Part shown: in pieces, positions 2,530-17,202 of the stretch
Position numbering within the stretch: the first letter of the stretch is position 1
How the letters are laid out: each line of letters begins with the position of its first letter
NCBI GenBank assembly: GCA_963515865.1
Contig: CAUPZH010000006.1
Coordinates: 18,609 to 42,608 of the forward strand
DNA length: 24,000 nt
Direction: 5' to 3'
Origin: an uncultured Veillonella sp.
Lineage (GTDB): Bacteria; Bacillota; Negativicutes; Veillonellales; Veillonellaceae
Translations under genes and position numbers: made by a program
Notes under the pieces: generated by a model
Database searches by the model: none
The model's input: only the letters and a program-made list of their open reading frames with translations
What the model was told of the DNA's origin: nothing

Positions 2530-4464
2530 ATGGCAGGAAAAAGTTTAATCTATAAAATATTAGAAACTCATTTAGTAGAGGGAACACTGGTTGCAGGTGA
2601 AGATATTGCTGTTGCCATAGACCAAACGTTAACACAGGATGCCACAGGGACTATGGCATATTTAGAATTTGAATCTTTAGGGTTAGATAGAGTAAAGACC
2701 CTATCTGTATCCTATGTAGATCATAATACATTACAAGATGGATTTGAAAATGCAGACGATCATAAATATTTACAAGATGTAGCAAGTAAATATGGTATTT
2801 ATTACTCAAAAGCAGGTAATGGGATTTGCCATCAAGTACATTTAGAACGATTTGCTAGACCAGGTCAAACTTTAGTAGGTGCAGATAGTCATACTCCAAC
2901 TGCTGGAGGCTTAGGAATGTTTGCTGTCGGTGTTGGGGGTATGGATGTGGCGGCATCTATGGCAGGAAAGCCATTCCATTTAACTTGTCCAAAAGTTACT
3001 AATATTAAATTAAATGGGCGTTTACAAGCTTGGTGTGCAGCAAAAGATATCGTGTTAAAAGTATTAAGTATTTTAACCACTAAAGGAAATGTAGGAACAG
3101 CCATCGAGTATACAGGAGAAGGCGTAGCATCTTTAACAGTACCGGAGCGTGCAACAATCACAAATATGGGGGCAGAAATGGGGATTACTACATCCATTTT
3201 CCCAAGTGATGCAAAAACAAAAGAATTTTTACGAGCTCAAGGTCGTGAAGATGTATGGGTAGAATTGCAGCCAGATGAAGATGCGCAGTATGATGAAGTC
3301 ATTGAAATTGATCTAAATGCATTAGTGCCTATGATTGCATGTCCACACTCTCCAGATAATGTAAAAACAGTAGCAGAATTAAAAGATGTTGTAGTAGACC
3401 AAGTACTAGTAGGAAGCTGCACCAATTCCAGTTATCGAGATTTAATGATGGTAGCAGCAATGTTGAAAGGACGTAAAATTCATCCAGATGTGAGTTTTGG
3501 GGTAGCTCCTGGATCCAAGCAAGCATTAGCAATGATTACAAAAAATGGAGCCTTAGCAGATATACTTGCTTCTGGAGCACGTTTGTTTGAAAGTGCCTGT
3601 GGATTCTGTGTAGGTTGCGGACAAGCGCCACGAACAAAATCTATTTCTTTACGTACAAATAACCGTAACTATGAAGGTCGTAGTGGGACTAAAGATGCCT
3701 TAGTGCATTTAGTTTCAGTAGAAACAGCGGTAGCCTCTGCTTTAATGGGAACGATTACAGATCCTCGTGAAATAGGGATAGAAGTACCAACAATTGAGCT
3801 TCCTGAGGTGTATGAAATTGATGATTCCTTGATTGTTGCACCAAAATGTGATGTAAACCAATCTATTTTACGAGGTCCTAATATTGGAGAGCCTCCTAGC
3901 AATATTGCGTTACCAGAAATAATTTCTGCTAAAGTGACGATCAAAGTAGAAGATAAAATTACAACAGATCATATTATGCCAGCTGGACCATATTTGAAAT
4001 TTAGATCGAATGTACCTAAATATAGTCAATATGTATTTAGTCCTGTAAAACCAGATTTTGCAGAAGAATGTAAAGAAAATGTTGAGCATGGATACTATAA
4101 TGTGATTGTAGCTCGTGAAAGTTATGGACAAGGATCTTCTCGTGAACATGCCGCACTTTGCCCAATGTATTTAGGAGTAAAAGCAGTGATTGCAAAATCT
4201 ATTGAACGGATTCATATGGATAATCTTGTGAACTTTGGTATTTTGCCTTTATTATTTGAAAATGATGCAGATTATGAGAGTATTCAAGAAGGTGATGAAT
4301 TATTCTATCATTGTGATGATGCTTCCTTTGCAGCTGGTGTATTTACCGTAGAGAATAAAACAAAATCTACTATGTATAGATTAAGAACACCATTAAATGA
4401 ACGACAATTAGAAATTGTTCGAGCGGGAGGTAAATTGAACTTCTTGCGTAATGGTGGGCAATAA
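2530..4464 (+). CDS. aconitase-family hydro-lyase (short, ~640-aa single-chain type; substrate not assignable)
   Basis: Aconitase motifs are present: DQTLTQDATG, GADSHTP, GSCTNSS, CGFCVGCG (Fe-S cysteines), and the swivel-domain motif YGQGSSREHAA. RBS taggagg lies upstream of the ATG at 2530. Confidence 0.9.
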   Translation: MAGKSLIYKILETHLVEGTLVAGEDIAVAIDQTLTQDATGTMAYLEFESLGLDRVKTLSVSYVDHNTLQDGFENADDHKYLQDVASKYGIYYSKAGNGICHQVHLERFARPGQTLVGADSHTPTAGGLGMFAVGVGGMDVAASMAGKPFHLTCPKVTNIKLNGRLQAWCAAKDIVLKVLSILTTKGNVGTAIEYTGEGVASLTVPERATITNMGAEMGITTSIFPSDAKTKEFLRAQGREDVWVELQPDEDAQYDEVIEIDLNALVPMIACPHSPDNVKTVAELKDVVVDQVLVGSCTNSSYRDLMMVAAMLKGRKIHPDVSFGVAPGSKQALAMITKNGALADILASGARLFESACGFCVGCGQAPRTKSISLRTNNRNYEGRSGTKDALVHLVSVETAVASALMGTITDPREIGIEVPTIELPEVYEIDDSLIVAPKCDVNQSILRGPNIGEPPSNIALPEIISAKVTIKVEDKITTDHIMPAGPYLKFRSNVPKYSQYVFSPVKPDFAEECKENVEHGYYNVIVARESYGQGSSREHAALCPMYLGVKAVIAKSIERIHMDNLVNFGILPLLFENDADYESIQEGDELFYHCDDASFAAGVFTVENKTKSTMYRLRTPLNERQLEIVRAGGKLNFLRNGGQ

Positions 4465-4542
4465 TTAGGAATAACAGTTAATAAATTAGAGTAAGTGATG
4501 GCACAGTGCAGACTGTGTCATCCTCTATATGTGAGGTGTATG

Positions 4543-5709
4543 ATGAAAGATTATATGAAATTACCCGTATTATATATGCGTGGCGGAACTAGTAAAGGAG
4601 CTTATTTATATGCTCCAGACTTGCCAACAGATTCAACAGAACGAGATGCAATGATCCTATCCCTCTATGGGAGTCCAGATGTACGACAAATTGATGGGAT
4701 TGGAGGAGCAGACCCTTTAACGAGTAAACTGGCTATTGTGGGACCTGCTTCGGTGGAAGGATGTGATGTAGACTATACATTTGCTTACGTAGGTATCGAT
4801 ACGGCAGTTGTCGATTATGAAGGTAATTGTGGTAACATTTCATCTGGAGTTGGTATTTTTGCTATGTTACGTGGTTTGGTAGAACTAGTCGAGCCAATCA
4901 CTGTAGTTCGCATACATAATACGAATACCCATAAAATTATAGAAGCTCATATCCCTGTACAAGATGGATTACCAGTGGTAACAGGAGACTTTGCCATCGA
5001 TGGAGTTCCGGGTACAGGGGCACAAATTATGCTCTACTTTCAATCCCCTAGCGGTTCTAAAACTGGGAAATTATTGCCAACGGGGAATGCGCGAGATACC
5101 ATCACTTTGGAAGTGGGAAATACGCATACAGCGAAGAATAATCATAGGATAGACGTAAGTTTTGTGGACTCTGCCACACCGGGTGTATTTGTGAAAGCAA
5201 AAGATTTAGGATATATAGGAACAGAAATGCCAAGTGATATCGAAGCAGATGCAGAGGGTCTATTAGATATATTAGAGGATATTCGTAGGACTGCCGCTGT
5301 CAGAATGGGATTAGCTACATCAAAAGAAAGCGCTAGTCCAGCCATTCCAAAGGTATGTATGGTGGGTACTGCTTCTACGTATACCGATATACAGGGCCGC
5401 GTGATTGAGGGTGCATCGATAGATATAGTAGCACGAACAAAAGCATTACAAGTGATTCATAAGGCCTATGCAGTCACTGGCGGTATTGCTACTGCAACAG
5501 CAGCACTTATTCCAGGGACGATTGTCAATGATGTGGTCAGTGAAGAGGCTAAGCGTACGAAAACCGTTACTTTGGGTCATCCAAGTGGGACTTTTACATT
5601 TAATATTGATATAGATACAGAGAGTCTATATGTTACCAAAGCTGGTGTAGCAAGAACTGCTCGTCCTATTATGGATGGCATTGCCTATGTTAAAGTTGGT
5701 AAATACTAA
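4543..5709 (+). CDS. PrpF-family isomerase (methylaconitate/aconitate isomerase-like)
   Basis: YMRGGTSKG lies near the N-terminus. TSKLAIV and EGNCGNISSGVG match the PrpF catalytic Lys/Cys regions. I moved the start to the ATG at 4543 (GAGG at 4533-4536, 6-nt spacing). The longer 4495 start has no RBS. Confidence 0.85.
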   Translation: MKDYMKLPVLYMRGGTSKGAYLYAPDLPTDSTERDAMILSLYGSPDVRQIDGIGGADPLTSKLAIVGPASVEGCDVDYTFAYVGIDTAVVDYEGNCGNISSGVGIFAMLRGLVELVEPITVVRIHNTNTHKIIEAHIPVQDGLPVVTGDFAIDGVPGTGAQIMLYFQSPSGSKTGKLLPTGNARDTITLEVGNTHTAKNNHRIDVSFVDSATPGVFVKAKDLGYIGTEMPSDIEADAEGLLDILEDIRRTAAVRMGLATSKESASPAIPKVCMVGTASTYTDIQGRVIEGASIDIVARTKALQVIHKAYAVTGGIATATAALIPGTIVNDVVSEEAKRTKTVTLGHPSGTFTFNIDIDTESLYVTKAGVARTARPIMDGIAYVKVGKY

Positions 5710-5931
5710 TAGAATATAGTAGAAACAAGTTATTGTAACAGATATAACCTGATATATGGAGCAAAGCCCATCTATAGTATGGACTTTCCTCTAATTTTAT
5801 TTTTGTAGTATGGAGGGAATCAAAAAAACATCTATTTTTGTGAATAGATGTATGTACACCTTGTAATGAAGGATAAATTATTTTATTATATAGCTATATA
5901 TACTCTGTATTTTTAAGGAGAGGTGTTACTT

Positions 5932-6657
5932 ATGAAACAACCATTAATCGGTATCTCAGGTTCTCATATGATTGACCAAGGCGGTCCATTTCCGGGATAT
6001 AAACGATCCTATGTGAATGATGATTATGTGCAGTCTGTATTAGAAGCAGGCGGCATTCCTGTGATTATTCCATTCCAAGAAGATGAAGCAACATTGAAAG
6101 CATTGGTAGAACGATTAGATGGTCTCATTCTTTCTGGTGGTCATGACATTGCCCCACAATTTTATGGAGAAGAACCAGAGCGTGGATTAGGTGCTATATG
6201 GCCAGAACGCGATATCTTTGATATGCGTTTATTAGCTTTCGCAAAAGAATGCAAGCTTCCTATTATGGGGATTTGCCGTGGACATCAAATTATCAACGTA
6301 GCCCATAAAGGATCCTTATATCAAGACTTACCTGCCTTTGCTACGATCAAGCATTCCCAAAATCAAACAGCAGGATTACCAACGCACTCTATGGTGATTG
6401 AAAAGGATTCCAAATTATTTGGTGTATTAGAATCTGAAACAGTGATGGTTAACTCTCATCACCACCAAATTGTGAAAGAAGTAGGAGAAGGCTTGCGTGT
6501 AGTAGGCCGTGCTAAAGATACTGTCGTAGAGGCTATGGAAGGCACAGACTACCCATACTTACGTACGTATCAATTTCATCCAGAAATGATGCGTCATACA
6601 GAGTTGAATGCAGCGATTTTCAAAGACTTTGTAGAGGCAGCTAAGAAAGAGGCCTAA
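5932..6657 (+). CDS. gamma-glutamyl-gamma-aminobutyrate hydrolase family protein (peptidase C26 / class I glutamine amidotransferase fold)
   Basis: IGISG near the N-terminus, GICRGHQ (nucleophile Cys), HHHQ, and YQFHPE (His/Glu of the triad). RBS aaggagagg lies 8 nt before the ATG at 5932. Confidence 0.85.
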   Translation: MKQPLIGISGSHMIDQGGPFPGYKRSYVNDDYVQSVLEAGGIPVIIPFQEDEATLKALVERLDGLILSGGHDIAPQFYGEEPERGLGAIWPERDIFDMRLLAFAKECKLPIMGICRGHQIINVAHKGSLYQDLPAFATIKHSQNQTAGLPTHSMVIEKDSKLFGVLESETVMVNSHHHQIVKEVGEGLRVVGRAKDTVVEAMEGTDYPYLRTYQFHPEMMRHTELNAAIFKDFVEAAKKEA

Positions 6658-16714: not shown

Positions 16715-16776
16715 TGGTAACTCCTTTAGTGCTTGCGATACATTATCAAAATAGTATAAACGGTATGTATAATTTG

Positions 16777-16785
16777 TGATATACT
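16777..16785 (+). promoter_or_regulatory. extended -10-like box (TGATATACT) upstream of the small ORF transcript
   Basis: It matches TGnTATAAT with one mismatch. A start about 7 nt downstream would fall at the AAGAGAGC block (16792). Confidence 0.45.
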
Positions 16786-16824
16786 ATAAATAAGAGAGCT
16801 TCCAACGTGAGTTGGGCTCATCTC
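16778..16824. repeat. left arm of an imperfect inverted repeat (blocks GATATACTAT / AAGAGAGC / CAACGTG / GGCTCATCTC)
   Basis: The same four blocks occur in the same order on the opposite strand at 17001-17062. See the findings. Confidence 0.75.
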
Positions 16825-16850
16825 TTCCTACTATGGGAGGAGGTGATACT

Positions 16851-16934
16851 ATGACACCATTTGAAATCGCATCTGTATTGATACAGTTTGGAATGTTAGT
16901 TGTAGCAATTTTGTCTTACCGTAAAAGTAAGTAA
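16851..16934 (+). CDS. 27-aa hydrophobic peptide, type I toxin-like (resembles holin-like toxin 'Hol-Tox' small proteins)
   Basis: MTPFEIASVLIQFGMLVVAILSYRKSK has a short polar N-terminus, one TM helix and a basic tail. A strong SD GGGAGGAGG (16835-16843) lies 7 nt before the ATG. The anti-SD CTCTTCC (16822-16828) can pair with that SD. This ORF is below the size cut-off of the supplied ORF track. Confidence 0.55.
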   Translation: MTPFEIASVLIQFGMLVVAILSYRKSK

Positions 16935-16990
16935 AATGCCTAACGATATAAGGTTTCGCGTACCTTAACACGTTAGGCATTTCGATTTTT
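16934..16990. terminator. long hairpin directly after the small ORF, possibly a shared bidirectional terminator
   Basis: AAATGCCTAACG (16934-16945) and CGTTAGGCATTT (16971-16982) form a perfect 12-bp stem, with an inner AAGGT/ACCTT helix. On the plus strand it is followed by cgaTTTTT. On the minus strand it is followed by a T-rich tract (tttacttactttt). Confidence 0.6.
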
Positions 16991-17000
16991 GATACGTTTC

Positions 17001-17062
17001 GAGATGAGCCTAACGCCTAGTACACGTTGTGGGCTCTCTTTTTTACAGTCATAGTATACCAT
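17001..17062. repeat. right arm of the imperfect inverted repeat; includes a minus-strand extended -10-like box TGGTATACT (17061-17053)
   Basis: The minus strand reads tggtatactatgactgtaaaaaagagagcccacaacgtgtactaggcgttaggctcatctc. Compare the left arm tgatatactataaataagagagcttccaacgtgagttgggctcatctc. Confidence 0.75.
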
Positions 17063-17097
17063 AATTGCATACTAACTGCCAATAGATTTATACAAAA

Positions 17098-17137
17098 ATA
17101 GAGGAACGTTGATAGTATTTGACCAACGTTCCTCTAT
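17098..17137. terminator. bidirectional intrinsic terminator; copy 2 of the repeated palindrome (stem ATAGAGGAACGTTG)
   Basis: The arms are identical to those at 1462-1501 (atagaggaacgttg / caacgttcctctat), but the 12-nt loop differs. It has aaaaa upstream and ttttatttt downstream, and lies 66 nt from the ddh stop. Confidence 0.8.
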
Positions 17138-17202
17138 TTTATTTTGGCTATGTTATTACAGTTCCGGGTATCTTATGAAATAAGATGCTATTAACGTATA
17201 TT

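Follow-up and report, generated by a model that had tools for sequence, protein, structure and literature searches.

The ychF-ddh Intergenic Locus

The DNA analysed here (the window, 24,000 nucleotides) comes from an uncultured Veillonella sp. (contig CAUPZH010000006.1, positions 18,609 to 42,608), and the element under study lies in it between the genes for YchF (503 bits) and diaminopimelate dehydrogenase (ddh; 437 bits). To judge from its sequence, this intergenic stretch is likely to be a small type I toxin-antitoxin cassette of a BsrG-like kind. An earlier note, made from the letters of the window alone, had singled out a short open reading frame (ORF) with its Shine-Dalgarno (SD) sequence, the motif CTCTTCC, a hairpin capped by GTGA, a 12-bp stem, three blocks of an inverted repeat and two -10-like boxes. 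Each of these was found where the note had placed it. The features are as follows.

16777-87, plus strand: plus copy of a mirror-image TG-n-TATACTAT box, TGATATACTAT
16792-99: left repeat block AAGAGAGC, with its exact reverse complement at 17033-40
16803-09: left repeat block CAACGTG, with its exact reverse complement at 17023-29
16815-24: left repeat block GGCTCATCTC, with its exact reverse complement at 17001-10
16802-16815, plus strand: hairpin ccaac-GTGA-gttgg, with a GTGA cap
16822-16828, plus strand: CTCTTCC, the anti-SD side
16835-16843, plus strand: SD sequence GGGAGGAGG
ATG 16851 to TAA 16932-16934, plus strand: putative toxin ORF, 27 amino acids, MTPFEIASVLIQFGMLVVAILSYRKSK
16934-16945 with 16971-16982: central stem, a perfect 12 bp
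17061-51, minus strand: minus copy of the mirror-image TG-n-TATACTAT box, TGGTATACTAT

The arms of the inverted repeat were recovered independently by a repeat search of the window, which returned four repeat pairs. Folding of the region, which the note had proposed as a check, was performed with RNAfold on the 257-nucleotide (nt) RNA spanning 16790-17046. A structure of -95.1 kcal/mol was obtained, containing a helix between the 5' and 3' ends, a hairpin that includes the SD sequence and the central hairpin. The corresponding value for shuffled sequences was -58.7 ± 4.6 kcal/mol. Given a z score of -7.99, and that 0 of 200 shuffles were as good, the structure of the module is not due to chance. 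For the 26-nt leader motif, 0 chance matches are expected in the window.

The Encoded Peptide

The peptide encoded at the locus (MTPFEIASVLIQFGMLVVAILSYRKSK) is predicted to consist of one transmembrane helix followed by a basic tail. Here, membership of the Hol_Tox family (Pfam PF16935) was defined by a score for the whole protein of no less than 23.3 bits, the curated gathering cut-off. The window peptide scored 32.1 bits (E = 1.1e-7), above this cut-off, and BsrG, included as a positive control with a sequence that matches prophage SPbeta at 100%, scored 34.5 bits. Eight paralogous peptides from the family described below were compared with the same model; three pass, one lies just below the cut-off at 22.4 bits and four gave no match. 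The likeness to holin-like toxins perceived in the earlier note is therefore borne out by the family score, and a 27-amino-acid relative with 93% identity has already been named 'putative holin-like toxin [Veillonella sp. CHU732]' by NCBI. A weak match of the window peptide to the ComI model of NCBIfam was also observed, at 22 bits.

For the protein-database searches, a 40-amino-acid upstream-extended frame and a 3-sequence alignment were used as queries in place of the bare 27-amino-acid peptide, and only 2 relatives of the peptide were found in the large protein database. Searches of phage and plasmid collections with tblastn yielded only non-significant Hol_Tox-like matches, from Brevibacillus phages and Bacillaceae plasmids, and blastn of the whole module against phage and plasmid collections gave no matches.

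TTG 16812 was considered as an alternative start, giving a 40-amino-acid ORF, and was rejected: a strong SD precedes ATG 16851 by 7 nt, and what would be additional 'residues' upstream is a translation of the SD hairpin. A public gene call of 47 amino acids (P0001, L001:370-513) is an over-extended version of the 27-amino-acid ORF, with extra N-terminal residues that again represent the translated SD hairpin. Locus L001 differs in its genomic context and has another variant of the leader, GAAGGGAC; its contig ends at the stop codon.

A Family of Modules in Veillonella

A scan of genomes gave 23 Veillonella loci. Thirteen of these are orthologues of the window copy, with 92-99% identity over 331 nt (165 nt in the truncated contig L013), and 10 represent a paralogue that is about 77% identical across the whole module; 3 genomes contain both. 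When metagenomes were scanned with the invariant leader, 43 more stretches were obtained, giving 66 related loci, and a viral contig with two further copies was found. At least 3 module copies occur on single contigs, and tandem pairs are present. In each of the 64 unique stretches (69 copies in all), a short ORF or an ORF remnant lies behind the leader. Removal of near-duplicates left 44 distinct complete modules (alignment A3), to which the family counts given below refer. All 44 share one architecture of ~300 nt, composed of the following parts in order.

Part 1: plus-strand TGnTATAAT/TATACT box
Part 2: 5' end of ~11 nt, variable
Part 3: invariant leader CAACGTGAGTTGGGCTCATCTCTTCC...GGGAGGAGGTGATACTATG
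Part 4: ORF of 24-27 codons
Part 5: central hairpin GCCTAACG...CGTTAGGC
Part 6: TGAGATGAGCCTAACGCC...ACACGTTG, then a variable ~11-mer and a T-run
Part 7: minus-strand TGnTATACT box

The CAACGTG and CACGTTG blocks are 217-228 nt apart. The ORF is intact, with 24-27 codons, in 39 of the 44 modules and disrupted in 5. Variable sites per codon position number 11/5/15 and 11/7/16, revealing a third-position bias, and about half of the codon differences in the ORF are synonymous. The small hydrophobic peptide gene is conserved as coding. Co-variation of the two repeat arms, which the earlier note had raised together with coding conservation, was likewise observed, in 5 base pairs changed on both sides (see below).

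Behind the common leader the peptides diverge widely (MTPFEIAS..., MTPFEFFS..., MTLFEVLM..., MTKYEKIS/T..., MKKFRKIY..., MKKLAIAF..., MTEFEKFY... and MTAYEKLS...). In loci L025-L067 and L071 (for example L058:1447-1781, L031:1270-1604 and L050:5541-5875), a near-invariant RNA scaffold is combined with very different peptides of 24-27 amino acids, of which MTKYEKITLVISIISLAIQIIDLVK, MKKFRKIYRLILILKLIVQLIDLFK and MTEFEKFYLIILALELLIHFIDLLK are examples from paralogues. The non-coding parts of paralogous modules are better conserved than the coding part. The five broken ORFs, with a frameshift or premature stop, are in L040:9085-9419, L044:7757-8091, L051:610-944, L064:1415-1749 and L056:4704-5038; these modules keep the leader, the 5'-3' helix and the antisense promoter, and are decaying copies or assembly errors. 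A variant reading MRNF-stop was seen on two different contigs.

Synteny of the ychF-ddh copy was observed in at least 16 loci. Here, the module is 92-99% identical, compared with 89-97% for the flanking housekeeping genes; in L004, for example, identity is 98.2% for the module, 91.4% for ychF and 90.9% for ddh. On the viral contig (L071, from IMG/VR), two modules flank a gene for a YadA-like trimeric autotransporter adhesin (features at 1542-2060, 3575-3870, 4163-5782 and 5915-6210), about 1.5 kb downstream of a gene for N-acetylmuramoyl-L-alanine amidase. This context implies that some module copies sit in prophage cargo regions.

Conserved Pairing in the Predicted Toxin mRNA

The plus strand contains a candidate promoter, a predicted SD-burying hairpin and the two strands of a long-range 5'-3' helix, referred to here as the lock helix.

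16757-16785, plus strand: candidate toxin promoter, with a weak -35-like TAAACG at 16757-62 and an extended -10 TGATATACT at 16777-85
16792-16824, plus strand: 5' strand of the lock helix, equivalent to helix P1 of bsrG mRNA
16818-16846, plus strand: SD-burying hairpin, in which 16818-16830 (anti-SD) pairs with 16834-16846 (which holds the SD GGGAGGAGG); loop CUA
17001-17044, plus strand: 3' strand of the lock helix, ending in the T-run 17039-17044, the predicted toxin mRNA 3' end
Outer block of the lock helix: 15 pairs, 96.4% of cells paired, 5 pairs changed on both sides
Inner block of the lock helix: 14 pairs, 99.5% of cells paired, 0 pairs changed on both sides, one-sided G-U changes only

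A plus-strand TGn followed by TATAAT or TATACT is present at a fixed distance from the leader in 35 of the 44 family members, and the toxin mRNA would start near 16792. RNAalifold, applied to 23 and to 44 sequences, returned the same long-range helix as the single-sequence fold. The 29 pairs of this helix are 96-99% paired across the family, and a slid control, in which the lock partners were shifted by 1-3 columns, gave just 32-50% pairing. Changes in the outer block form stepwise series, such as C-G / U-G / U-A. Over the 29 lock pairs, 110 G-U combinations were counted and 6 A-C combinations. This asymmetry argues for selection for pairing in plus-strand RNA and not for a palindrome in DNA, which was considered as an explanation and rejected on the same counts. 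Since it is plus-strand pairing that is selected, one plus-strand transcript must hold both arms and read through the central hairpin. One of two readings offered in the earlier note, that of a lock between the 5' and 3' ends of the toxin mRNA, thus receives support from the 5 compensatory pairs and from the excess of G-U over A-C.

Each strand of the lock helix can also form an alternative local hairpin. In the 5' strand this is the GTGA-capped hairpin (16802-16815), which is 96% paired in the 44 modules, with 1 compensatory pair. In the 3' strand it is a terminator-like hairpin of -13.5 kcal/mol, 96-100% paired, with 1 compensatory pair (C-G to U-A, in 3 sequences). The T-run at 17039-17044 directly follows the lock 3' strand, and the only candidate terminator hairpin is that strand itself. 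Conservation of both local hairpins would be compatible with a refolding from hairpin to lock.

With regard to the ribosome-binding site, pairing of the SD with CUCUUCC was found as the earlier note had described it, but its length was underestimated there: the helix comprises 13 bp in the minimum-free-energy fold, and not 7 bp. Overall, the predicted SD hairpin has 11-13 bp; its pairing reaches 99% in the 44 modules, and it varies only by one-sided U-G/U-A changes. Pairing of the 5' end with the anti-SD (AAGAGA/UCUCUU) was also considered as the main state and was rejected, given that the 5' end co-varies with the 3' arm and the anti-SD is invariant.

Two further observations concern the promoter region. 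In L060:2553-2600 and L066:3560-3607, unrelated sequence, TTTGATTATAAACG, stands in place of the -10 region on the plus strand, and the remaining module is intact; these modules may be toxin-promoterless copies still expressing antisense RNA. On the minus strand of the window at 16740-16780, promoter-like hexamers (ATCACA-16-TATACT and TATACA-18-GATAAT) stand back to back with the toxin promoter. They constitute a candidate ychF promoter, in which case overlapping signals may drive divergent transcription of the toxin gene and ychF.

The Central Hairpin and the Predicted Antisense RNA

Three features describe the other half of the module, for which a convergent small RNA (sRNA) is predicted.

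16934-16982, either strand: central hairpin, immediately past the stop codon; its plus-strand form is the counterpart of stem-loop 3 (SL3) of bsrG mRNA, and its minus-strand form the predicted sRNA terminator
17053-17082, minus strand: candidate antitoxin promoter, with -35 TTGGCA at 17082-17077, an 18-nt spacer and an extended -10 TGGTATACT at 17061-17053
16928-17045, minus strand: predicted antitoxin sRNA of ~115-120 nt, with both ends placed from the promoter and terminator

The local fold energy of 16934-16995 is -22.2 kcal/mol. The outer stem of the central hairpin is nearly invariant, whereas the inner stem and loop differ between paralogues yet stay paired. At 16946-16970 in alignment A3, the variants AAGGT/ACCTT, AAGTA/TACTT and GAGG/CCTC distinguish paralogue groups, and this variable loop and inner stem may be the determinant of cognate sRNA-mRNA recognition. 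Among the first 5 nt past the central stem, the mean number of T residues in the 44 modules is 4.07 on the minus strand versus 2.27 on the plus strand. Given that the U-tract is on the minus strand and not the plus strand, the central hairpin is the predicted terminator of the sRNA.

In a consensus scan, the antitoxin promoter (TTGGCA-18-TATACT) has 10 of 12 consensus matches and an upstream TG. A minus-strand TGn followed by TAnnnT is present in 43 of the 44 modules, 23-24 nt from the CACGTTG block (22 and 26 nt in one module each). The -10 hexamers are TATACT (35), TATAAT (7), TACAAT (1) and TAGAAT (1). Thus, only hexamer positions 3 and 5 vary, while the 'n' after TG is free to vary, and as a sequence pattern this is the behaviour of a real extended -10. 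A TTG-type -35 is retained in most subfamilies. The convergent sRNA of the second reading in the earlier note is therefore supported as a prediction by the promoter in 43 of 44 modules and by the minus-strand polarity of the terminator.

The predicted sRNA would be fully complementary to the end of the toxin ORF (its last one or two codons and the stop codon) and to the toxin 3' untranslated region (UTR). A 124-nt test RNA (the complement of 16922-17045) folds into a 5' hairpin and a terminator hairpin. The sequence GCCTAACG occurs twice, at 16938-16945 and 17008-17015, and CGTTAGGC (16971-16978) and the leader GTTGGGC (16811-16817) are each able to pair with either copy. Because the partners are interchangeable, a 'swapped' fold is possible, with the leader paired to the post-stop copy and CGTTAGGC to the distal one; it corresponds to the leader/post-stop helix drawn in the Rfam BsrG model.

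Between the module and the end of ddh lies a perfect 17-bp stem, AAAATAGAGGAACGTTG / CAACGTTCCTCTATTTT, at 17095-17140 of the window, with A/T runs on either side. It resembles a bidirectional terminator insulating ddh from the module, and is the source of a spurious Rfam match to ncr1015.

Interpretation and Alternatives

Most probably, the locus is a type I toxin-antitoxin module on the chromosome; it would be of the Hol_Tox (TxpA/BsrG) kind and follow the plan of bsrG/SR4 of Bacillus subtilis. The type I reading of the earlier note thereby gains computational support. By contrast, its presentation of the lock and the convergent sRNA as alternatives does not stand: both would coexist, as parts of one known layout. 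The note had further called it unusual that the 5' part of the sRNA should be a paralogue of the toxin leader, but the same layout is found in bsrG/SR4 (PMC3834814); the resemblance simply reflects that the sRNA would be complementary to the lock helix in its 3' strand.

A mechanism may be assigned by analogy with bsrG/SR4. Transcription from the plus-strand promoter (extended -10 at 16777-85) would produce an mRNA of ~250 nt, 16792-17044, of which the first ~33 nt would pair with nt ~210-249 in a closing helix like P1 of bsrG. Inside this helix would lie the SD-burying hairpin, the 27-codon ORF for a single-helix membrane peptide and the post-stop hairpin. The 3' strand of the closing helix would first fold alone, as a terminator hairpin with U6, and then swap partner to lock onto the 5' end. 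With its SD buried and its ends locked, the mature toxin mRNA would be compact and poorly translated. The convergent minus-strand promoter (17082-17053) would give rise to an sRNA of ~120 nt, perfectly antisense to the toxin 3' UTR and ending at the central hairpin. As for SR4, pairing of the sRNA with the mRNA would probably begin at an exposed loop, here the paralogue-specific loop of the central hairpin, and the resulting long duplex might be subject to RNase III-type decay with the ribosome-binding site left sequestered.

It is conceivable, although unlikely, that the module encodes a small membrane protein under antisense control that has no toxic activity. Such a protein would act in physiology or regulation, for example as an inhibitor like ComI or as an accessory of the holin-like kind, and the locus would not be an addiction or defence module. 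The weak ComI match of 22 bits, the stable synteny of one copy between housekeeping genes in many species and the burial of the SD in all predicted folds, such that expression may be very low and conditional, would all suit such a protein, as would the report that YhzE-2, a type I-like peptide, is not toxic in its own host (Fozo et al., PMC2887945). These points must be set against the toxicity on overexpression of the tested members of the TxpA/BsrG group, BsrG, TxpA and EF3263 (PMC3834814 and PMC2887945), and against the multi-copy occurrence, fast-diversifying peptides, occasional decay (5 of 44 ORFs broken) and prophage association of the family, which are typical toxin-antitoxin traits. 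An arrangement like that of par/Fst is very improbable. In such an arrangement the central hairpin would serve as a bidirectional terminator and end the toxin mRNA, overlap of the two RNAs would be confined to this hairpin, and the outer inverted repeat would be explained by a 5' part of the sRNA that is a paralogue of the toxin leader. Compensatory changes and the G-U/A-C ratio of 110 to 6 place both arms in one plus-strand RNA; most paralogues lack a U-rich tail on the plus strand (a mean of 2.27 T in 5 nt, versus 4.07 on the minus strand); and par has direct, not inverted, repeats. These findings outweigh the presence of ATTTCGATTTTTG after the central hairpin on the plus strand of the window copy, and the precedent of fst RNAI/RNAII, for which convergent transcription and a shared terminator are known (PMC3834814).

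There is scarcely any likelihood that the arms are selected as DNA, in a miniature mobile or repetitive extragenic palindromic (REP)-like repeat or a palindromic operator, with the ORF incidental. The earlier note had pointed to many ORF-less copies as the mark of a mobile or REP element. The family does occur in multiple copies, among them tandem pairs and contigs with 3 or more modules; mirror-image boxes bound the module, and in a few copies the repeats persist with a broken ORF. However, 39 of the 44 modules have an intact ORF, in which substitutions follow a coding-type pattern, so that the copies are not ORF-less as such an element would require. In addition, the mirror-image boxes vary like -10 hexamers, tolerance of G-U on one strand is a signature of RNA and not of DNA, and the ychF-ddh copy is fixed in position while its flanks have diverged by up to 11% between species.

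Several points nevertheless weigh against the type I toxin-antitoxin interpretation preferred here. Some Hol_Tox-like or type I-like peptides are not toxic, as YhzE-2 illustrates, and the peptide at this locus has its weak resemblance to ComI. The SD is buried in every predicted fold, whether of full-length, truncated or 3'-blocked RNA, and none of these folds offers a route to translation of the toxin. Most of the compensatory changes divide few paralogue groups and thus represent a small number of independent events, and the SD hairpin and inner lock block, being nearly invariant, are without double covariation. A simple terminator scan of both strands detected no canonical terminator, because the hairpins have internal loops. 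Finally, RNA homology to bsrG would be at best remote. The full Rfam BsrG model (RF01412) aligned to 16792-17067 of the window with 20.3 bits (E = 0.006 in 306 nt), below the gathering threshold of 55, and other Veillonella modules scored 20.6-23.6 bits, compared with 110-210 bits for true Bacillales relatives (SPbeta, 210; Brevibacillus phage Emery, 121; a Terribacillus plasmid, 110.6). Besides BsrG, Rfam gave chance-level matches only (ncr1015 on the ddh terminator and several miRNA families).

A more elaborate proposal, which taken as a whole is possible rather than probable, is that the type I module has become a lineage-specific 'chassis' in Veillonella. An almost invariant RNA scaffold, consisting of the leader, lock helix, outer central stem and antisense promoter, would have had quite different peptides of 24-27 amino acids swapped into it, and cognate recognition would be set by the variable loop of the central hairpin. 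Cross-talk among paralogous antitoxins might then occur through the invariant blocks, and the mRNA might mature by a terminator-to-lock partner swap without a dedicated terminator. Such a chassis, if confirmed, would be the first type I system to be characterised in a diderm Firmicute.

If confirmed, the module would extend tractable type I toxin-antitoxin biology to the Negativicutes, Firmicutes with an outer membrane. Veillonella is an abundant oral and gut genus in which no such system has been described in the literature searched. At least 44 variants of one RNA scaffold with different peptides amount to a natural experiment that could separate RNA-level from peptide-level constraints. The module could also serve to examine how an antisense RNA at the 3' end acts on a ribosome-binding site that is buried, and whether a terminator hairpin can refold into a 5'-3' lock. 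These loci are at present mostly unannotated or mis-called (for example P0001, 47 amino acids), and a covariance model would mend their annotation. The concept of a type I system is left unchanged by the Veillonella module, which is a sound but fairly ordinary addition.

Comparison with Known Type I Systems

No type I system of Veillonella or other Negativicutes was found in the literature searched, and none is named in the T1TAdb and Fozo texts searched. Among systems from other hosts, RNAs of the hok/Sok and AapA/IsoA systems (PMC6733600) share with the Veillonella module a long-distance 5'-3' interaction, which keeps the full-length toxin mRNA inert, and conserved alternative local hairpins, compatible with co-transcriptional folding. 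Their antisense RNAs, however, act at the 5' region or the start of the ORF (T1TAdb), whereas the antisense RNA predicted in Veillonella would act at the 3' end, and their peptides are unrelated to the Veillonella peptide. The par locus of Enterococcus faecalis pAD1 (fst RNAI/RNAII) is similar in its convergent promoters around a gene for a small hydrophobic peptide, with a hairpin in between. It differs in having direct repeats at the two 5' ends and a truly bidirectional terminator; the Veillonella repeats are inverted, the plus-strand RNA would read through the central hairpin, and the plus-strand tail is not U-rich across the family.

Closer likenesses are seen to the TxpA/RatA family, including EF3263 of E. 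faecalis. In Fozo et al. 2010 (PMC2887945), this family comprises small hydrophobic peptides found Firmicutes-wide, some of them annotated 'holin-like toxin', with an antisense sRNA of ~110 nt that overlaps the 3' UTR, as reported there for EF3263. The RNA sequence and lock architecture of the Veillonella module are not described in the text searched.

The nearest counterpart is bsrG/SR4 of the B. subtilis prophage SPbeta (Jahn & Brantl 2013). In bsrG mRNA, helix P1 joins nt 1-35 to nt 232-262, SL1 contains the SD, and the stop codon is in SL3, on its 5' side. The 3' end of this mRNA is the region to which SR4 is complementary; SR4 promotes decay of the mRNA by a route that depends on RNase III, and lengthens the helix sequestering the SD from 4 to 8 bp (PMC3834814). 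Both peptides belong to Hol_Tox and start with MT-x-(Y/F)-E. In both cases a long helix that joins the first ~35 nt to a 3' segment closes the mRNA, or is predicted to do so. The SD lies, in Veillonella by prediction, in the first stem-loop, and the stop codon at the base of the stem-loop that follows the ORF. The antisense RNA, which is likewise predicted in Veillonella, is convergent and complementary to the mRNA in its 3' part. Both leaders contain GCUCAUC-C...G-GGUGAU-CU-AUGAC, and the weak Rfam match spans the entire BsrG model. By contrast, the Veillonella peptide has 27 amino acids and not 38, no separate terminator stem-loop (SL4) comes after the closing helix, which is directly followed by the U-run, and the predicted SD hairpin has 11-13 bp in place of 4 bp. 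The sRNA predicted in Veillonella would be ~120 nt and fully overlapped, while SR4 is ~180 nt and partly overlapped, and the Veillonella host is a diderm Firmicute. The locus is thus a diverged relative of bsrG/SR4, with a peptide whose family annotation is already in NCBI records.

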